Sequence record: AP019521.1
Length of the DNA stretch: 64,000 bases
Direction: 5' to 3' (one strand)
Origin: Escherichia phage KIT01
How positions within the stretch are numbered: position 1 is the stretch's first letter; each line of letters opens with the position of its first letter. Shown in pieces: positions 14,261 to 50,825 of the stretch. The position numbers were made by a program, and so were the translations under genes. The notes under the pieces are model-generated. The model was not told the origin of the DNA. It saw only the letters and a list, made by a program, of their open reading frames with translations, and did not search any database.

Positions 14261-14782
14261 TTAATATCCTCGGTCTTGACGAGCAAAGTTCTCGGCATTT
14301 TTCAGATAATACAACTTAAAGATTTCTTCAGCAGTCAGACCAAGGCCTTGGAACATATTCAGAACAAAGTGCAGAATATCAATCATCTCGAATTTAATCT
14401 CGAGCTGGTCTTCAGGAGACAAATCGTTAATCAGGGTTTCACGACGTTCAGCATGTTGAGCTTTCCAAGGCTTCCATACTGCAGATGCATCTTTTTCACC
14501 ATTGCTCATACCGCCAAGAGAAGTCAGAAGTTCACGGAATTCGTCATCAATATAATCTTTCTGATTACGCAGCCAATCAACAACTTCACCTGCAGTGGCC
14601 AAATCATCAGGATGACGGTTATATTCAGGTTTATCTTTAGCCAAACGGACCTGTAATGATTTCTGCATATCAAGCATAACCTGCAGAGGGTCTTTATCTT
14701 CGTGAATCAGAGCATTAAAATAAGCTTCCTCAGCTTTATCAACACCTGCAATCAGTTGAGAACATTCATTAAAATGAGCCAT
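14261..14782 (-). CDS. 56: dCTP/dCDP pyrophosphatase (MazG-like)
   Basis: start at MAHFNEC as in T4 gp56; DPLQVMLDMQ, EIFKLYYLKN..ENFARQDRGY C-terminus matches T4. Confidence 0.85.
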   Translation of the reverse strand: MAHFNECSQLIAGVDKAEEAYFNALIHEDKDPLQVMLDMQKSLQVRLAKDKPEYNRHPDDLATAGEVVDWLRNQKDYIDDEFRELLTSLGGMSNGEKDASAVWKPWKAQHAERRETLINDLSPEDQLEIKFEMIDILHFVLNMFQGLGLTAEEIFKLYYLKNAENFARQDRGY

Positions 14783-14872
14783 TATATTTTTCCTTTTCAA
14801 TTCATTAGTAAGTTAGATAATTATAAACTGTCAGATTAAAGCGAATAAATAATAATTTAACAGGAGGATAAC

Positions 14873-21289: not shown

Positions 21290-22183
21290 TTAAAGGACCA
21301 CGTCCTCATAACTTGGCATTTCGTGCTCAGAATGGATATGGGCACCGAAATAAATGAATTCAGCTAGACCAGGATGGAATACTAAACCAGGATTCTCATG
21401 ATAAATGATATGAGGTCTTGATTTCAGAATCTGATAATATTCAACCTTACTCGGTTTGAATTTAATAATCTCTACATCAGGACGATAGTCTTCACGCTTA
21501 AATGAATCATTCGGATCGGTGATATAAAGGCGAGAACCTCCAGCCGCAGCTTGGTCTACAACTCTTTCGAATTGATAGCATTTATCAGAGATACGGAATG
21601 GATGGAAAATACCATCAATTTTAATAGGCGCTAGACCTTCAGAGTAACGCTCAATTACTGCCGGATTAATTACCTTTTGGTCTACAAAAATCTTATCAGA
21701 GGACGCACCTCGTGACACCAGGACGTCTTTCTGGCATTGATTCAAGACTGTAGTATAAATCGAACGTTCAACTGAAGACACGTCGATATCAATGAACTCA
21801 TCGATGTAATAACGAGGAACTTCAGGGTCCATTGTAATGTTAAAGTTGAATTGTACAGTATGAGCACCATCATAACCTGTGATATCGGTTACCAATCCTG
21901 AGCAGTCATAGTATTCGATTAACGAATCAACAACGAACTCATTTTCAGACCAAAAATGTTTACGAGTTTCATAAGCATTTTCTTTATACCAAAGCGGTAC
22001 AAAATTCAGTTCAGGAAACAATTCAATACATTCTTTGATATCGCTCGAATTTCTAGGATAAGCCAGATAATCACCTGGGCAAGCACGGTTTAAATGGAGT
22101 TGAAAATTACCGTCCTTAAGGACGGCATATTCACCTGTTTCGTAACTACGCATACTGAAAATAGGAACGATAAACAAACTCAT
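21290..22183 (-). CDS. unrecognised protein at the beta-glucosyltransferase locus (candidate hmC-modifying transferase)
   Basis: 297 aa; lies between uvsX and gene 42 where T4 has beta-gt; no similarity to T4 beta-gt detected by eye. Confidence 0.55.
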   Translation of the reverse strand: MSLFIVPIFSMRSYETGEYAVLKDGNFQLHLNRACPGDYLAYPRNSSDIKECIELFPELNFVPLWYKENAYETRKHFWSENEFVVDSLIEYYDCSGLVTDITGYDGAHTVQFNFNITMDPEVPRYYIDEFIDIDVSSVERSIYTTVLNQCQKDVLVSRGASSDKIFVDQKVINPAVIERYSEGLAPIKIDGIFHPFRISDKCYQFERVVDQAAAGGSRLYITDPNDSFKREDYRPDVEIIKFKPSKVEYYQILKSRPHIIYHENPGLVFHPGLAEFIYFGAHIHSEHEMPSYEDVVL

Positions 22184-22878
22184 TTCAGGAATCCTCGAAC
22201 GTAGTCAAAATCACGTTCAAATACATGTGCACTAACCATAGTATGGGAATACGTACCCAGACCAACACCACACTGTTCAGCAATAAAGGCCATCAGTTTA
22301 CCCTGCAGATAGAAATCCAGCTGCATAACGATAGCACAGTTCTGTGAACGCATATGGGTATGTGCATAAAGACGTCCATCACGAATATAATATGTTACCG
22401 AATCGGTGCACGGATATTCTAAGGATTCGTCAGAATCAAGGAGGGCTTGGTCTTGTTCTTGGAGAATTTGGAACACAACTCGTCTCGAGTTAGGCTTTTC
22501 TTTAAGCTCTTTAAGTAAGGCTGGGAGTTGGGCCACAATTCGAGGTCCATAGAAAGTGTTGAAGTTTGCAGGCAATACGTCACTTTTCGGCTTATCAATG
22601 AACTTAGCAACATTAGGGTATTCCTTAAATGCTTCGGCGGCATCAGTACCGCCGGAAATCATAAACTTCCAGAAAGATTCGGCATAATCATAGTTGATAC
22701 GATTAATACGAGGGTCGGTGAATTTATAGGTGCTTGCATCCAGTACTTCTACCGAAGCAGAACCAATTTCATAACAACGGCCGATACGAGAATCAACTGC
22801 AAACTGTGGAGCTTCCAGGATTTCTTCGTTCATTTGCTTAAACGCGTTTTCAAAACTAACAGCGGTAATGTGTTTCAT
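22180..22878 (-). CDS. 42: dCMP hydroxymethylase (thymidylate synthase fold)
   Basis: 232 aa; PCTDSVTYYIRDGRL...MRSQN...QLDFY aligns with T4 gp42 CTNTVQYLIRD...MRSND...RNDY; synteny. Confidence 0.8.
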   Translation of the reverse strand: MKHITAVSFENAFKQMNEEILEAPQFAVDSRIGRCYEIGSASVEVLDASTYKFTDPRINRINYDYAESFWKFMISGGTDAAEAFKEYPNVAKFIDKPKSDVLPANFNTFYGPRIVAQLPALLKELKEKPNSRRVVFQILQEQDQALLDSDESLEYPCTDSVTYYIRDGRLYAHTHMRSQNCAIVMQLDFYLQGKLMAFIAEQCGVGLGTYSHTMVSAHVFERDFDYVRGFLK

Positions 22879-23411
22879 TTATTCACCTTATTTTCAATAT
22901 ATTCATTCAGACGTTTTAATTCTACCATATCGACGTTAAGCAAGTTATTATGCCCGTCATGGTTTAAAACTTTAAAAACATTTTTAAAACAGTCTTCATA
23001 TTTTTGGATAGTTAAGTTGAATTCATCTTTAGTCAGTTTAATGAGGTCATCTTCAAAGTCTTTATCCAACGGATTACGGGTTAAAATAATCTCAATGATA
23101 TTGAATTCTTTTTTGAAATCAATCCAATCTGCTAGTTCTACATAAGGGTCCATTTCACCACGAAGGAATCCCGAGTAAACAATATTACTAGGATACCCAC
23201 GGTCTAAGATGTAGACAAAATTAGGGTCTAAAAACTTATACAACGTCTCGACTAAAGCCTTGTCATTATCAGTCCCTAATGAAATGCATTTGCCATTAAT
23301 CTTTTTAGGGAAATCAATAAGACGATATTTCTTATCAGATAAAAGTGATTCAATTAAAGTAGACTTCCCGGAATTATCCGGGCCGTCGATAACAATGATT
23401 TTTGGTTTCAC
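22875..23411 (-). CDS. P-loop nucleoside/nucleotide kinase-like protein
   Basis: 178 aa; Walker A IIVIDGPDNSGKSTL at N-terminus; small kinase fold typical of dNK/TMK-like enzymes. Confidence 0.6.
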   Translation of the reverse strand: MKPKIIVIDGPDNSGKSTLIESLLSDKKYRLIDFPKKINGKCISLGTDNDKALVETLYKFLDPNFVYILDRGYPSNIVYSGFLRGEMDPYVELADWIDFKKEFNIIEIILTRNPLDKDFEDDLIKLTKDEFNLTIQKYEDCFKNVFKVLNHDGHNNLLNVDMVELKRLNEYIENKVNK

Positions 23412-23782
23412 GGATGATATGCCTTATAGGTTTCAAGAGTTCCTTCACGAACCATTTCTTTAAAGTGGTCAGGACGGATTGCTCGGTCATCGATGATAAA
23501 AGTATAACTCGGCTTATGTGTAAGCAGATTATGATATTTCAATCCGATCTTTTCAAGGTTCTTAACCAATGCAGGAACTACTTCAACCAAGATTCGACCA
23601 GGGCCGCATGAAGTCATGCCACGGGCAGTGAACAAGGTAATCTCATGACCTTCGTCATAAAGCTTATTAATCATGGACACCATTTCGGTGTCCGGTTTAA
23701 AGTTTTCGTAATCACGGTCATCTTGCCAGTGAGTAATGGTATTATCGATATCAAAACACAGATGCATTAAATTTTCTTCCAT
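23408..23782 (-). CDS. HAD-superfamily phosphatase-like protein
   Basis: 124 aa; motif I FDIDNTI (DxDxT), later TAR and IIDD motifs; alternative start at 23767. Confidence 0.55.
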   Translation of the reverse strand: MEENLMHLCFDIDNTITHWQDDRDYENFKPDTEMVSMINKLYDEGHEITLFTARGMTSCGPGRILVEVVPALVKNLEKIGLKYHNLLTHKPSYTFIIDDRAIRPDHFKEMVREGTLETYKAYHP

Positions 23783-25440
23783 TGTTTGTGGAGTTCAGTA
23801 GAACCTGTAGGTTTATATTTTACACCAGTTTCCTGGTCAAGCAAAACCCACTTATCAGGGCAACGAGTGATAATTTGAGCCGTAATAGGGTCACGAACTT
23901 CATCGACAAATTCACCTGTAATAAGCTTACGCTTACGAGGATGCCGCTTCAGCAGCACACTCAGTTGGTATAGACCGTTGTAATAAGCACCCAGAGCTTT
24001 CAGAGGATTATTCTTAAAGTAACCTGCCAGTGCCATCCAAATAACGGCAATCCAGAGCTTGTGCTTAAATGTACACATCGGAATATCATCTAAAGGCATA
24101 ACCTTTTCAATATCAACGAATACACGAGTTCCGTTACGAGTTAATCCACCCCATAGAGGGTCAGAGTTAAATTTGTCATAGCCATCGATAGAATAAAGCA
24201 CCTTAGCTTCGTCATAAATCGCAGGGCCTTTAGAACTATTACCAAAATAACCACGTGGGTCGATGATTTTAATATCACCTTCGTCCGACAGCATAATATT
24301 ACTGTAGTGCGGGTCACCATGAATAAGTTGGTATGGTTCTTTATGTTCAGACAGAATTTCTAGTGCATGACGGAGAAGTTTTTCAGGGTCGCCTACCTTG
24401 AAGTCGTTAACATGGGTAATGCCCTGTGGAGCAAAGCCTTCAATCAATCCAGCAATAGAAGCATTACGAATAAGGACCTTGTCCAATACTTCTTTCTTAA
24501 CATCAGAATACCATTGCTCATCGGATGGGTTATCGATAGTTCCGCCGAATGAACGCAATGCACTAATGACCTTATAAACCATGAGGACTTTGGTTTCTTT
24601 AGACATAAACCGGTAGGCATCTGCCATGGTACGACCAAAGATACGTTCCATTTTAATGAATTCGCCTGGAGCAAAGTCTACAATGCTAGGAACGAATTCA
24701 GAATCAATAGAATTATACCAATTGATTTCTTTAGATTGGATTTCTTTACCTAATTCGTTGGTAGGTACTTTAATAGCCAGATTCTCAGTGAATTCTAATT
24801 TATTAAATTCACGGTTAATTTCAGAATCTTCATGGGCCTTAGCCAGTTTCAATTTGTCACCGACATCAACCACAAAGTCCAGCTTACGTTCAGTCAAATG
24901 GACCATCGAATCCAGGTTGTCTGCAAGGTCTTCGCCATAATTAGAACGGTCGAAACCTGTCCAATTAGCCACCTGATACAAACCAACCACACCACCGCCA
25001 GTACCAATTTCACGCAAGTACGGTTCTTCAAATGTAAAACGACAGTCGGTCCCATAGGTATAACAGTAGTCGTTATCCCACTCAACTTTATGACCTTCAG
25101 GAATAATATCACACCAGTTAAACAAGACATTATGCCCGATGATATCTTCGGCAATGCAATCGATAGCATGAGCTGAACCATTGGCCACATCTACGTTACG
25201 GATAGTGAATTTAGGCTTATCACTGGTAATCATGTTAATGGATTTAATATAGCCTTTAACGAGGTCGTTAAATTTGCTGTGAATAACCAGAATAATTTCA
25301 TCTGATTGGTTACTATACAAATCATACAAATGTTTTAATACGGTATGTTGTTTGTAGTTAACCAATACCTTCGGGATTTCGTTAGTAATTGGATACAACC
25401 GTGAGCCAAGACCCGCGCCTAAAATAACAACCTTTTTCAT
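23767..25440 (-). CDS. bifunctional sugar-1-phosphate nucleotidyltransferase / APH-choline-kinase-like sugar kinase
   Basis: start set at MKKVV after GAGGAA SD; N-terminus VVILGAGLGSRLYPIT..IPKVLV = RmlA/GlmU signature; C-terminal HGDPHYSNIML...IIDPRGYFG = Brenner kinase motif. Confidence 0.7.
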   Translation of the reverse strand: MKKVVILGAGLGSRLYPITNEIPKVLVNYKQHTVLKHLYDLYSNQSDEIILVIHSKFNDLVKGYIKSINMITSDKPKFTIRNVDVANGSAHAIDCIAEDIIGHNVLFNWCDIIPEGHKVEWDNDYCYTYGTDCRFTFEEPYLREIGTGGGVVGLYQVANWTGFDRSNYGEDLADNLDSMVHLTERKLDFVVDVGDKLKLAKAHEDSEINREFNKLEFTENLAIKVPTNELGKEIQSKEINWYNSIDSEFVPSIVDFAPGEFIKMERIFGRTMADAYRFMSKETKVLMVYKVISALRSFGGTIDNPSDEQWYSDVKKEVLDKVLIRNASIAGLIEGFAPQGITHVNDFKVGDPEKLLRHALEILSEHKEPYQLIHGDPHYSNIMLSDEGDIKIIDPRGYFGNSSKGPAIYDEAKVLYSIDGYDKFNSDPLWGGLTRNGTRVFVDIEKVMPLDDIPMCTFKHKLWIAVIWMALAGYFKNNPLKALGAYYNGLYQLSVLLKRHPRKRKLITGEFVDEVRDPITAQIITRCPDKWVLLDQETGVKYKPTGSTELHKQWKKI

Positions 25441-25500
25441 TATCTGTTCCTCAAGTGAATGTAGGTACATTATACACTATTTTTAATAAATTGGTATTGC

Positions 25501-26001
25501 TTAAATCTTATCTTTACCGATTTCAATACACTGTTCTATTGCCGCCGGTACTTTGGTCTTGAGCTTATCGATTTGTTTCTTATAATCACGAGCTTTACCG
25601 AAGCTCTCGGTTTCGAGCATTTCGTAATAACGAGCCTCATGGATAGAAATCTGTAGATTGATATGGTTTACACACATCGCATACAGTTTCTGCTTTTTGT
25701 ACAAATCATCTTGGCGCTTCATTTCTGCCTGGTGTTTGGCTAGTACCGCTTCACGCTTGGACTCTTGTTCACGTTGGAATTCGATTTCCCTTTGAGCATA
25801 TTTTGCACAGTTATTACCGCATTGATTATTAGCTCGGGTATACACAAGTCCAGAACCAGCACGGAATTTCATTTCGCCATCGAATTGTTTCTGTTCAGCT
25901 GCGATACGAGCTTTACCAACTTCATCGGTCGAAACTGCATCACCATATTGGACCGCGCAACCTGATAGGAGCATACTCATTGCGATAATTAACTTTTTCA
26001 T
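25501..26001 (-). CDS. predicted lipoprotein
   Basis: 166 aa; signal peptide with lipobox LSGC; charged coiled region. Confidence 0.5.
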   Translation of the reverse strand: MKKLIIAMSMLLSGCAVQYGDAVSTDEVGKARIAAEQKQFDGEMKFRAGSGLVYTRANNQCGNNCAKYAQREIEFQREQESKREAVLAKHQAEMKRQDDLYKKQKLYAMCVNHINLQISIHEARYYEMLETESFGKARDYKKQIDKLKTKVPAAIEQCIEIGKDKI

Positions 26002-35500: not shown

Positions 35501-36519
35501 CGTGTAACCTCATTATAAAGTTGCGCGGCCATAGTCTTAAGGGCTTTAACATCATCTTCAGTGTGGCCGTCAGGAAGGGCATCGATATAATCATACATCA
35601 TATCCAAGAGGGACTTAACTTCATCTTCCTCTTCAGAATCATCGATATCAACACTGTTATCTACCTTAGACACAATACGTAAAGAATGGACAACCTTTTC
35701 AAGCTCTGATTCGAACTTAGTAAGTCCATCATCGATTTTATCGACTATAACACGAACTGCGATATTTGTAAAATCTTTGTAATCGATAGTCGCATTTGGA
35801 TAATGAATCTTACGGTGCCAACAGGTTTCATTGATGATGAAATCCATCTTATGAGTTTCTGTATCGAAAATCCAGAAGCCGCGAGGGTCATTCTCATCAC
35901 CTGCAGTTAGGGTCCAGGGCGTACCAATATACTTAACGTTTGCTGCATCAGAAATAGTGTGGAAGTGGCCTGACCAAACCTGCTTATATCTCTTAAGGAA
36001 ATCAGGTTCTAAACCATGGGATTTCATTCCTTTATAGAAATAGAAACCATTTAATTCCCAGTGACCTATACAGAAATCTGCCGTGGTATTTTTGATATGG
36101 TCCATGATATCAGTCGTGTTTTCTTCACACATCCATGGAATCAAATCAATTTCGGTGCCATCAAAATTAACAGTAGTAGGTTTCTCGTAAACAGTAAAAT
36201 TTTCATACTGAGTAAGAAGTTCAGAAACTGCATTAGGAGTTATGCTATTTTTAAACGTTGCATCATGGTTACCAATTATAACATGGACTTTAATACCTGC
36301 ATCGCTGATAATTTCCACCAGACCACGATTAAATTCCATACATTTATGGGTGATAGCCTTGCGTACATCGAACCAATCACCATATTGAATCCATGTATCA
36401 ATATTGTTTGCTTTAGAATATTCTACAGCCTGTTTAATACCGTTAAGCTGGATTTTCTGAATCCAAGGGTCATCGGCTTTTACTCCGATATGCAAATCAC
36501 CTATATTCAAAATTTTCAT
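35497..36519 (-). CDS. 47: recombination endonuclease subunit (Mre11/SbcD-like)
   Basis: 340 aa; phosphoesterase motifs GDLHIG, GNHD, GHWE matching T4 gp47. Confidence 0.9.
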   Translation of the reverse strand: MKILNIGDLHIGVKADDPWIQKIQLNGIKQAVEYSKANNIDTWIQYGDWFDVRKAITHKCMEFNRGLVEIISDAGIKVHVIIGNHDATFKNSITPNAVSELLTQYENFTVYEKPTTVNFDGTEIDLIPWMCEENTTDIMDHIKNTTADFCIGHWELNGFYFYKGMKSHGLEPDFLKRYKQVWSGHFHTISDAANVKYIGTPWTLTAGDENDPRGFWIFDTETHKMDFIINETCWHRKIHYPNATIDYKDFTNIAVRVIVDKIDDGLTKFESELEKVVHSLRIVSKVDNSVDIDDSEEEDEVKSLLDMMYDYIDALPDGHTEDDVKALKTMAAQLYNEVTR

Positions 36520-37370
36520 AATCTACCTTTATAATGTATTTCACTATTAAATTCTATCTCAGAAATCATAAAGCTTTTTATGCCGTCATTAGCCCAGATT
36601 TTCTTAGGTCTAGTAATTGTAACTGTAGGCTTAAAAATTTTATAAACCAAATTGTGATAATTACCATCCATAAAACCTTTAGCTAAAGCTATTTCTCTAA
36701 ATTTATACGGTGGCAAAAATCCAGTAGAAATCCAAAGCTCTTTTAATTCTTTTTGAATATCAGGGTCATATATCCCATCGGTCTTTTTCAAGTTTTTCTT
36801 ATGTTCATCGGTTAGAAAACTGCCAAGGACCCAAGATTCAGGTTGTTTTCCTTCTACAAATAATCCTTTATCAACGCCATTGTTATACCACTTCTTACCC
36901 TTATTATGACTAGATGCTTTATAATTAGGAGAACGACCTTCTACGTATCCTTCGGGGACTGTAGGTGCAAAGGTTTGTTCTAATGTAACAGGATTATAGG
37001 AATGAATATATCCTTTGGCATTATGAGAGCCATAAAGAGGGTGTTGCTCTTTAGGTAGCGAAAGCCCAAAGAATCCTTTAGGAGCGGCGACAGCCCTATT
37101 AAAGAATAGAGGATTTTGGGCTGCGTCAGTTCTTAACTGGTACATTCTTTCAGCTTCTAAAGCCTCTTCTCTTGTAGGGTGTTCGCTTACAATACACGAG
37201 TCGAATAATTCAGGATGCTCTAAAAGCTCATTTTTATATATTTCTTTATATGCTTTAGAAAGGACACTCCCGTGATACCCTTTCAAATGCTTCTCCAAAG
37301 TGGTAGACCCTATATAAAACGGTGGAAGCTTAGTCCCGGAATATATTGTCAGGTATGTGATGTATTTCAT
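36516..37370 (-). CDS. GIY-YIG homing endonuclease (Seg-like)
   Basis: 284 aa; N-terminal YITYLTIYSG...FYIGST, conserved R and E (EALEAER); sits where T4 has 47.1/alpha-gt. Confidence 0.7.
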   Translation of the reverse strand: MKYITYLTIYSGTKLPPFYIGSTTLEKHLKGYHGSVLSKAYKEIYKNELLEHPELFDSCIVSEHPTREEALEAERMYQLRTDAAQNPLFFNRAVAAPKGFFGLSLPKEQHPLYGSHNAKGYIHSYNPVTLEQTFAPTVPEGYVEGRSPNYKASSHNKGKKWYNNGVDKGLFVEGKQPESWVLGSFLTDEHKKNLKKTDGIYDPDIQKELKELWISTGFLPPYKFREIALAKGFMDGNYHNLVYKIFKPTVTITRPKKIWANDGIKSFMISEIEFNSEIHYKGRL

Positions 37371-48696: not shown

Positions 48697-49678
48697 TTAT
48701 TTCAGAAGGGTAACTTCAGCGATTTCGCTCCAGTCATTTTTATCGGTGGCAATGAAGTCCGCCAGATAAAGAGCTGTACGTAATGATACGTTACGAAGAC
48801 GAGATACATTAGCCTTCATCCATGCTAAAGCTTGATAAGTCTCAGCATCAGTCAGACCTCGATTTTGCATCATATCAGTGGACAGGATAACGTCTTCAAC
48901 ACGAACCATAATCTCTTCGTTAGAGTGAACTCCGAGGTCTAAGTAAACTGAACGAGATACTAAAGCCTGGAGGTGTGGAGCAAGTTTAGTTCCACGCTCT
49001 AATTCACGGTCGATATCAACGTTGGTGATGAACACGATGGTGCCTTCGTATTCAAATTCTTTATCGATATTTTTATCATCGAGGTAAGAACTTGAAGTGC
49101 TCCAGCACACCTTACGTTTTTCACCTGTATCCAATGCCGCTTTTAACAGGTTCAGGATATCCATATCAGAGAATACATCAACATCATCAATAAGAAGAAC
49201 ACTATTAGGGCCGCGGTTATTCCAAAGCTGCTCGTAAAGACCGATTCCACTAATCTTTCCGTTGATTGATTTATATTCGATAGTTTCATTTTCGTGGGCA
49301 TTTTGTAATGCTTTATCCAAAGAATACGTTTTACCAATACCTGCGGCACCAGAGATGATAAGGGAACGAATTTTACCATCGATGATTCCGTTGGTCATCA
49401 TGTTCATTACTTTAAAACGTTTGTTAATGCGATGTTTCATTTCTTCAGCGGATTCAGTAACCATTGCAGGAGCTTCAGCACCTTCCATTTCAACGTCACA
49501 TTTGAACACCCATACACCACGTTCAACACCATCAATCTGTACGAATACCTTGCCATCACCGAGGTGAGCTTCGGATTCATGAATTTTGTTAGGGAACCAG
49601 GTTTTACCTGAACTCATGAACGTACCAGAGATTTCATTACCGCGATAGATGCCTTTGTTGATTTTGATAGTTAACATT
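48697..49678 (-). CDS. AAA+/P-loop ATPase
   Basis: start set at MLTIKINKG after GGAG SD and downstream of promoter -10; Walker A GAAGIGKTY, Walker B VLLIDDVD. Confidence 0.6.
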
Positions 49679-49699
49679 ATATTCTCCATTTCACTCAGT

Positions 49700-49743
49700 A
49701 GATTTGATAGGTCCATAATAACATGCTCTACGAGAGTGTAAAC
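49700..49743 (-). promoter_or_regulatory. early promoter cassette upstream of AAA+ ATPase gene
   Basis: gtaaac 49738-49743, 17-nt spacer, TATTAT. Confidence 0.5.
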
Positions 49744-49760
49744 TCTTTTTTGCACTAAAC

Positions 49761-49784
49761 CCAAAAAGGCCCGAAGGCCTTTTA
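49761..49784 (-). terminator. intrinsic terminator after nucleotidyltransferase-fold gene
   Basis: minus GGCC-UUCG-GGCC followed by UUUUU. Confidence 0.5.
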
Positions 49785-50825
49785 TCATTTATAATACGAG
49801 TTGTGGTTGTCGAGGTATACCTCTTCAACGAACTTGTCCCAGAACTTCATGTCTACCTTCTCAGGCATACCGTTCTTAGCGGCCCAGATAGCATTAGTTT
49901 CGACTTCATCAACGATGGCTTCAAGTTCGGCCTGCACATCTTTAAAAGCATGAAGCCCTTGTTTGATTTCAAGGATAAACGGTGCCGTACGTAAAGGATA
50001 TTGGAGGTCACCTGTTTGATAGATTTCCTTCAACTGATAACCAGCACGATAAGCATGGCTCAGAGCTTTCCAGTCAATACCTTCGTTAGCTTCAGCCTTA
50101 CGAGCACGTTCACCATATTCCGCATCGAGCTTATTCAGAGATTGCTTGAGCTCGATTAATGACAGGGTGGTTTGGTATTTACGCCCGAGAACAGTATAGA
50201 ACGTTTGAGGGCCTGTTTTCTCATGGTTATGGAATACCCATTCACAGAATTCGTTTTCAGGGAGTCGATGTTTGATATCTTCTACCTTAGTACGACGTTG
50301 CTTAGTCGAACCATCTTCTTGATAATCGACCCACTGTTCAGGAATCTGGTTAACAATAGCCAGTACACCACGCAGAGCAGCCAGTCGAGAACCCTTAACA
50401 CCATATTTAGAAGCTTGCTTACGGACATACCCTAAATAGGCTTTCATGTTAGTTGTATAGAACCGAGAACGGTTATCTTGGATAAATTTCCATACATCAG
50501 GTAAATCAGATTTAACCACCAGTTCAGGTGGGGTGTGGAGCATATCCAGAGCAACGGTTTCGCCTTCAGCCGCTAGTTTAAAGAAATATTTCAGGCTGTA
50601 AAGCTCATGGTCAACATCATCTTTAGTGTTTTTGGAAGCAGTGTTATTCGTATTCAGGTTGGTATGGTTCATAGCCGTACCTAACAGAATATCACGCGGA
50701 TGTGGAACAAAGATTTCTTTAAAATCGACATCAGATTCCGGAGTACTTGTTCCATAAAGGTGGCTACCGAAGTAGCCTTTCATAACTGTTCTCATTCTTT
50801 GTTCTCGAAGTGGATTACAGGACAC
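49785..50825 (-). CDS. Pol-beta-superfamily nucleotidyltransferase-fold protein
   Basis: 346 aa; N-terminal YFGSHLYGTSTPESDVDF = G[SG]x9-13 D-x-D NTase signature. Confidence 0.5.
   Translation of the reverse strand: MSCNPLREQRMRTVMKGYFGSHLYGTSTPESDVDFKEIFVPHPRDILLGTAMNHTNLNTNNTASKNTKDDVDHELYSLKYFFKLAAEGETVALDMLHTPPELVVKSDLPDVWKFIQDNRSRFYTTNMKAYLGYVRKQASKYGVKGSRLAALRGVLAIVNQIPEQWVDYQEDGSTKQRRTKVEDIKHRLPENEFCEWVFHNHEKTGPQTFYTVLGRKYQTTLSLIELKQSLNKLDAEYGERARKAEANEGIDWKALSHAYRAGYQLKEIYQTGDLQYPLRTAPFILEIKQGLHAFKDVQAELEAIVDEVETNAIWAAKNGMPEKVDMKFWDKFVEEVYLDNHNSYYK

Follow-up and report, generated by a model that had tools for sequence, protein, structure and literature searches.

The closest described systems come from phages that carry arabinose on their DNA. 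In RB69 and DLP3 cytosine is replaced by mono- and poly-arabinosylated 5-hydroxycytosine (5hoC) (Lee et al., NAR 2026, PMC13326640), and Serratia phage 92A1 and Acinetobacter phage Maestro are also reported to carry arabinosylated 5hoC. As far as the work of He et al. 2026 (Nat Chem Biol) is described in PMC13326640, AfhE of E. coli phage HY126 is a bifunctional D-arabinose-5-phosphate 1-kinase and uridine diphosphate (UDP)-arabinofuranose pyrophosphorylase. It converts D-arabinofuranose-5-phosphate (Araf5P) to the 1,5-bisphosphate (Araf1,5P2), and AfhF then takes off a phosphate. PMC13326640 names RB69 gp52:53 and DLP3 gp82 as the counterparts of AfhE, and it lists the Dhakaviruses among the genera with a syntenic arabinosylation cluster. 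The RmlA plus aminoglycoside-phosphotransferase make-up of the RB69 protein, with a presumed role in UDP-arabinose synthesis, is attributed to Thomas et al. 2018. Another homologue, TH1_060, is essential for the propagation of Shewanella phage Thanatos, a phage with pentose-modified cytosine. Here we consider a gene of Escherichia phage KIT01 (genus Dhakavirus) that lies in a 64-kb stretch of its DNA; this stretch is the window, and positions are numbered within it. We consider it probable that this AfhE-like gene encodes an enzyme that makes UDP-arabinofuranose for the arabinosylation of 5hoC in phage DNA, starting from arabinose-5-phosphate and with a separate HAD phosphatase step. The enzyme family, its two-domain nature, the pathway and the Dhakavirus cluster have all been published already (2018-2026), and the KIT01 gene is an unannotated member.

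The folds of the two domains and their catalytic residues were established directly. The initial annotation, made from the letters of the DNA, had read the N-terminus as an RmlA-like nucleotidyltransferase and the C-terminus as a kinase of the APH/choline-kinase fold with a Brenner motif. Both halves are borne out by profile searches. Pfam NTP_transferase matches residues 13-110 with 34 bits (cut-off 21.2) and Pfam APH matches residues 356-427 with 25.6 bits (cut-off 23.2), and the motifs align with the catalytic residues. We aligned 35 homologous sequences with identity down to 30%. The transferase residues G10, R14, K24, D111, D192, G194, D195 and K198 are invariant in this alignment, which means the G-x-G-x-R motif, the catalytic Lys and the metal-binding Asp residues are all intact. 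The kinase residues K224, E238, H374-G375-D376, N381 and D394, the last followed by PRGYFG, are invariant too. These are the beta3 Lys, the alphaC Glu, the Brenner motif HGDxxxxN and the metal-binding Asp of an APH/ELK-fold kinase. An AlphaFold2 model based on the same alignment has a predicted local distance difference test score (pLDDT) of 92.3 and a predicted template modelling score (pTM) of 0.88. On profile, structure and catalytic-residue tests, the assignment as a nucleotidyltransferase joined to a kinase is correct. Behind the kinase domain there is a C-terminal extension (…ITRCPDKWVLLDQETGVKYKP…) that the T4-like members share and that a distant clade (30-33% identity) mostly lacks, and the model is less confident there.

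None of the NCBIfam equivalog cut-offs that would place the protein in a named group is reached. The MurU models, whose cut-offs are 370 and 250 bits, give 24 and 20 respectively, rmlA_long gives 21.5 against 320, and GalU gives 19.9 against 548. The protein shares its fold with MurU, RmlA, GalU and LicC, yet by these scores it is outside their orthologous groups. The orthology to phage proteins was worked out here by direct comparison. The phrog_4098 profile matches over the full length (protein 1-557 against 1-559 of 559 profile positions, E 2.9e-269). RB69 gp52:53 consists of two frameshift-split halves that are collinear with the KIT01 protein, with 41% identity to gp52 (E 6e-78) and 44% identity to gp53 (E 8e-56). 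The protein of Serratia phage 92A1 is 47% identical and Thanatos TH1_060 is 44% identical, each with 100% coverage, and the Maestro protein is 43% identical. A tblastn search with the AfhE-like protein found matches in 367 phage records, each with at least 80% coverage. We argue from these alignments that the KIT01 protein is most likely a member of the AfhE family and an orthologue of RB69 gp52:53 and DLP3 gp82.

The gene is on the minus strand with its stop codon at 23767-23769, and there are two candidate in-frame ATGs, at 25470 (567 amino acids) and at 25440 (557 amino acids). The second ATG has a GAGG Shine-Dalgarno sequence 8 nt upstream, and the first falls within a TATAAT-like box. All of the aligned homologues begin MKK, and 557 amino acids is the length in most GenBank records. 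The second ATG appears to be the better start because it has a ribosome-binding site, gives the MKK start of the homologues and agrees with most records; the 567-residue start was dropped on this evidence. The protein is an exact match to KIT01_044 (BBI57392.1), which is labelled "hypothetical protein". Every source-named record of its protein cluster carries either that label or "nucleotidyl transferase domain-containing protein". Mislabels of the gene are spreading in GenBank all the same: 'GlmU', 'UDP-glucose dehydrogenase', 'capsular polysaccharide' and 'mannose-1-phosphate guanyltransferase'. The gene region of about 1.7 kb was compared with that of 51 Dhakaviruses, all of them T4-like coliphages (e.g. 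JS10, QL01 and WG01), and the DNA is 95.8-97% identical. The Dhakavirus copies of the protein are 98.7-99.6% identical. Since the protein varies less than the DNA (0.4-1.3% differing as against about 3-4%), this comparison indicates that the gene is under purifying selection. Chance could not account for such conservation.

The operon context was also observed directly. On the minus strand five genes follow one another between 25440 and 21290, with stops that overlap the next starts, and the AfhE-like gene is the first of them. The order on this strand is gp41, gp40, uvsX, the five cluster genes, a lipoprotein-like open reading frame (ORF), imm, the DNA polymerase gp43, regA and gp62/44/45, and the genes around the cluster are in the T4 replication-recombination order. 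The nucleotide kinase gene overlaps each of its neighbours by 4 nt. The thymidylate-synthase homologues of RB69 (gp48) and DLP3 have been shown experimentally to make 5-hydroxy-dCMP (PMC13326640). Two metagenomic proteins, P0075 (922 amino acids) and P0089 (946 amino acids), have HAD, SIS (sugar-phosphate isomerase) and NTP_transferase domains fused together, and APH also scores in P0075. Such fusions would be a Rosetta-stone link for the whole sugar branch and give independent support for the functional connection of these enzymes. The features are collected in Table 1. It must be noted that the HAD gene has more than one possible start. If it begins with the ATG at 23782 it overlaps the AfhE-like gene by 16 nt, and the ATG at 23767 gives a TAATG stop-start overlap and a protein of 119 amino acids. 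The shorter length is annotated in Marfavirus Potts1 and called in a Serratia 92A1-like contig, while JS10 has an annotated protein of 132 amino acids. The HAD phosphatase is widely mislabelled 'phosphoheptose isomerase' in GenBank.

Table 1. The AfhE-like gene of phage KIT01, its parts and its partner genes, with positions in the 64-kb window
Feature	Position	Strand	Evidence
AfhE-like bifunctional enzyme, 557 aa + stop	23767..25440	-	ORF, start and ribosome-binding site, Pfam, phrog_4098, homology to RB69 gp53 and gp52
N-terminal sugar-1-phosphate nucleotidyltransferase domain, ~residues 1-209	24814..25440	-	signature LGAGLGSRLYPIT, K24, D111, D192-x-G-D195-x-x-K198
C-terminal APH/choline-kinase-fold kinase domain, ~residues 210-500	23941..24813	-	K224, E238, Brenner motif H374-G-D-P-H-Y-S-N381, D394-PRGYFG
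C-terminal extension, ~55 aa, residues ~501-557	23770..23940	-	alignment columns ~690-756; pLDDT 69-85
HAD-superfamily phosphatase, 124 aa, AfhF / RB69 gp51 homologue	23408..23782	-	DxDxT motif (CFDIDNTIT); 63% to RB69 gp51, E 6e-65; phrog_1238
P-loop nucleotide kinase, thymidylate-kinase-like, 178 aa, RB69 gp45 homologue	22875..23411	-	37% identity, E 7e-36; phrog_761
Thymidylate-synthase homologue, 232 aa, predicted 5-hydroxy-dCMP synthase	22180..22878	-	79% to RB69 gp48, E 1e-145; Pfam Thymidylat_synt
Predicted first DNA arabinosyltransferase, 297 aa, RB69 gp46:47 homologue	21290..22183	-	69% to gp47, 63% to gp46; phrog_3891
gp56 dCTPase homologue	14261..14800	-	ORF; JS10 annotation of syntenic gene 56

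For the substrates, the order of the steps, UDP as the carrier and the final DNA modification, we follow published work on the homologues. By analogy with them, the C-terminal kinase would take D-arabinofuranose-5-phosphate from the host and phosphorylate it at its anomeric C1 with ATP. The product would be arabinose-1,5-bisphosphate, so a separate HAD phosphatase would have to act before the nucleotidyltransferase step, and the enzyme encoded by the next overlapping gene would strip the 5-phosphate. The N-terminal domain would then join arabinose-1-phosphate and UTP to give UDP-arabinofuranose, and the glycosyltransferase encoded by the last gene of the operon would put the arabinose onto 5hoC. 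The base would enter DNA by way of the 5-hydroxy-dCMP synthase and the nucleotide kinase of the operon. The gp56 dCTPase homologue would supply dCMP and exclude dCTP, which would place it upstream in the base-replacement pathway. The outcome would be arabinosylated cytosine that protects the phage DNA against host nucleases. The initial annotation had proposed that the enzyme turns a free precursor into a nucleoside diphosphate (NDP)-sugar donor for DNA modification. The donor part stands, since homology to RB69 gp52:53 and an operon with homologues of the 5-hydroxy-dCMP synthase and the arabinosyltransferase both point to it. The free precursor should be given up: the kinase substrate is probably D-arabinose-5-phosphate, going by the AfhE biochemistry as relayed in PMC13326640.

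Several points weigh against this pathway. The identity to the homologues is only 41-47%, and the link to the assayed HY126 AfhE would run through RB69 and other homologues and through the secondary description in PMC13326640. Recombinant TH1_060 had no activity in the assays tried, in which xylose-1-phosphate was used. We found no published DNA composition or enzyme assay for a Dhakavirus in the searchable literature. A tblastn search with RB69 gp55 found no arabinose-5-phosphate isomerase in the window or in JS10 1-66 kb (best E 3.7-9), and the U32-like gene of RB69 was absent from the same two regions. A disagreement within PMC13326640 on the order of the steps, which is taken up below, belongs here as well. 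We argue that a phage isomerase is dispensable, and that its being missing does not argue against arabinosylation. Thanatos DNA is pentosylated, and is described as mono-arabinosylated by a single transferase, yet no gene with a SIS domain was found within 8 kb of its cluster. Besides, E. coli has its own supply of arabinose-5-phosphate, which KdsD and GutQ make for the synthesis of 3-deoxy-D-manno-octulosonic acid (Kdo). Since the phage appears to encode no isomerase, the precursor would come from this host Kdo pathway.

Among the Escherichia-named records 176 have an AfhE-like gene and 39 are from Dhakaviruses, and the number with a phage isomerase hit, 137, equals the difference between the two. 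The closest relatives of the KIT01 protein are found in a Klebsiella Marfavirus, at 80.7% identity, and in Providencia phage PSTCR6, at 71.7%. No isomerase was seen in the genome regions of these phages that were examined, and both keep the U32-like gene. With prephenate, U32-family enzymes add a hydroxyl group to pyrimidines of rRNA and tRNA at C5. A U32-peptidase-like gene is found beside the cluster in Thanatos-1 (L008, 12428-13818), in the Serratia 92A1-like contig (L009, 10805-12449) and in two further loci (L005, 9675-10835; L006, 10493-11656). A chorismate-mutase (CM_2) gene is also beside the cluster in Thanatos and in the 92A1-like contig. Neither a U32-like nor a CM_2 gene is found in the KIT01 window. 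The two genes may make up an alternative or oxygen-independent route of hydroxylation.

The second arabinosyltransferase of RB69 has no counterpart either. No glycosyltransferase domain was found in the other large ORFs of the window, and rIIA.1 and gene 39, between which RB69 has its second transferase, are only about 590 bp apart with no annotated gene in the gap. With a single candidate glycosyltransferase in the window, mono-arabinosyl-5-hydroxycytosine would be expected. We considered an ORF of 284 amino acids at 36516-37370 (minus strand) as a second transferase because it is in the position of the T4 alpha-gt gene, but the ORF encodes a homing endonuclease of the HNH type (phrog_10820, E 8e-83). 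This endonuclease gene comes directly after gene 47, where nothing is annotated in JS10. Phage LQ5 has a copy with 99% identity, and related genes occur here and there in many T4-like phages. A bolder proposal can be built on these absences, namely that the Dhakavirus operon would be either a stripped-down five-gene arabinosylation system that relies wholly on host arabinose-5-phosphate, or one whose enzyme activates a different pentose phosphate and so puts an undescribed sugar on 5hoC. We give this proposal little credence.

One can imagine a scenario where the same UDP-arabinose is made in a different order. The HAD protein would first dephosphorylate arabinose-5-phosphate and an anomeric kinase would then act on free arabinose. 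Such a salvage of the free sugar is the logic of the initial annotation. It is also how Table 1 of PMC13326640 has it, with RB69 gp51 entered as 'dephosphorylates Araf5p to Ara' and the C-terminal domain as 'phosphorylates Ara to Araf1p'. The closest kinase folds also include enzymes with unphosphorylated substrates (glucosamine kinase, maltokinase and choline kinase). However, the text of that paper, in relaying He et al., has AfhE acting on Araf5P to give Araf1,5P2 and AfhF acting afterwards, and it notes that the HAD homologues of RB69 and DLP3 resemble GmhB, a sugar-bisphosphate phosphatase, in structure. The KIT01 kinase domain has further invariant basic residues (K321, R325, R396, K413 and K481) that could bind the phosphate. 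We consider the phosphatase-first order unlikely. The sugar itself could also differ. In that case the subclade of Dhakavirus, Marfavirus and the Providencia phage would activate another sugar phosphate or use another nucleoside triphosphate, and the sugar on the DNA would not be arabinose. This subclade averages only about 44% identity to the other T4-like members, and it has two fixed differences inside the Brenner motif, HGDPHYSN instead of the HGDPNFSN found elsewhere (H378/Y379 against N/F). The absence of the isomerase from the regions examined and of chemical data on Dhakavirus DNA from the literature would also fit. But the other T4-like members are about 52% identical among themselves, so 44% is no outlier, and the clades have different fixed residues at no more than 9 positions. 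We therefore rejected the 42-44% identity to RB69 as a sign of changed specificity, as there is no convincing signal in it. The would-be user of the donor is 63-69% identical to the first arabinosyltransferase of RB69 and the base-hydroxylating enzyme is 79% identical to its RB69 homologue. The isomerase does not help this scenario, because Thanatos is described as mono-arabinosylated without a SIS-domain gene within 8 kb of its cluster and the textbook host enzymes make the precursor. We consider a sugar other than arabinose unlikely.

Two other scenarios require the protein to do something quite different. It could be a fused pair like LicA and LicC, in which a choline or alcohol kinase and a CTP:phospho-alcohol cytidylyltransferase make CDP-choline or a similar NDP-alcohol. 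CDP-choline was a product that the initial annotation allowed for, but there is no contextual support for it. RmlA, GalU and MurU score as well or better. A LicD-type phosphocholine transferase is missing from the operon, whose genes include a glycosyltransferase homologue and one for an enzyme that hydroxylates cytosine. The full-length relatives of the protein are also from phages with arabinosylated DNA, which makes the choline route very unlikely. The protein could otherwise be the product of a moron, an auxiliary enzyme that modifies not the phage DNA but glycans of the host envelope, for instance lipopolysaccharide (LPS) or capsule. The downstream HAD protein does resemble the capsule biosynthesis phosphatase family TIGR01689 (E 5e-14, below its cut-off), and two of the GenBank labels of homologues given above, 'capsular polysaccharide' and 'GlmU', read the same way. 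However, the gene sits between the DNA polymerase and uvsX in an operon shared with nucleotide-metabolism genes, the TH1_060 homologue is essential to Thanatos, and the literature links the cluster to the arabinosylation of DNA (PMC13326640). An envelope enzyme is so improbable that we give it almost no weight.

Two other loci in the window can be mentioned. An ORF of 166 amino acids at 25501-26001 (minus strand, phrog_1754) lies between the AfhE-like gene and imm and has a lipoprotein-type signal (…LLSGC). It is roughly where RB69 has its arabinose-5-phosphate isomerase, and it may be a superinfection-exclusion factor. Further away there is an overlapping pair on the minus strand, at 48697-49788 and 49785-50825. 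It consists of a STAND/AAA-like NTPase with a C-terminal helix-turn-helix and then an RlaP-family (pol-beta-type) nucleotidyltransferase, and it matches by position the JS10 genes annotated nrdC.10 and nrdC.11.

If UDP-arabinofuranose is the product, the enzyme would supply the activated sugar for DNA hypermodification. T4-like phages with this modification withstand restriction enzymes and CRISPR nucleases, and they become sensitive to some of the defences that recognise modified DNA. The two effects matter when phages are selected for therapy, for which many Dhakaviruses are candidates. The practical gain is in annotation, as a gene labelled "hypothetical" can be given its place in a published pathway. 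The minimal cluster without an isomerase also makes two predictions, that the DNA would be mono-arabinosylated and that the phage would depend on host arabinose-5-phosphate made by KdsD or GutQ.

The KIT01 protein has much in common with AfhE, RB69 gp52:53 and DLP3 gp82. They are about 550-565 amino acids long with the nucleotidyltransferase before the kinase, they have the same catalytic residues, and the homology to the RB69, 92A1, Maestro and Thanatos proteins runs from end to end. The cluster is placed as in RB69-type clusters, between the DNA polymerase and uvsX, and it has the same partners: HAD phosphatase, 5-hydroxy-dCMP synthase, arabinosyltransferase and nucleotide kinase. Unlike RB69 and DLP3, it belongs to a separate subclade (Dhakavirus, Marfavirus and the Providencia phage) that has no phage isomerase in the regions examined, and unlike RB69 the Dhakaviruses also appear to do without the U32-like gene and the second arabinosyltransferase. 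Outside of phages, the initial annotation had compared the protein with AmgK/MurU, LicA/LicC and Fkp. The idea of a kinase and a transferase as two domains of one enzyme holds, but the proposed logic is closer to HldE/GmhB than to their two-step scheme. AmgK/MurU in the recycling of N-acetylmuramic acid (MurNAc) and LicA/LicC in phosphocholine metabolism are separate proteins that work on unphosphorylated substrates with no phosphatase step. Fkp of Bacteroides, an L-fucokinase/GDP-fucose pyrophosphorylase, likewise has a sugar-1-kinase and an NDP-sugar pyrophosphorylase in one polypeptide, but its kinase is of the GHMP type rather than of the APH/ELK fold and its substrate is free fucose. In ADP-heptose biosynthesis the bifunctional kinase/nucleotidyltransferase HldE (RfaE) works with the HAD phosphatase GmhB. 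The three steps proposed for the KIT01 enzymes are used there: a kinase acts on C1 of a distally phosphorylated sugar, a separate HAD phosphatase follows, and a second domain makes the NDP-sugar. HldE differs in its folds, which are unrelated (a ribokinase-type kinase and a cytidylyltransferase-type transferase), in using heptose and ADP, and in having LPS as the destination. The resemblance to HldE is one of analogy and not of membership.

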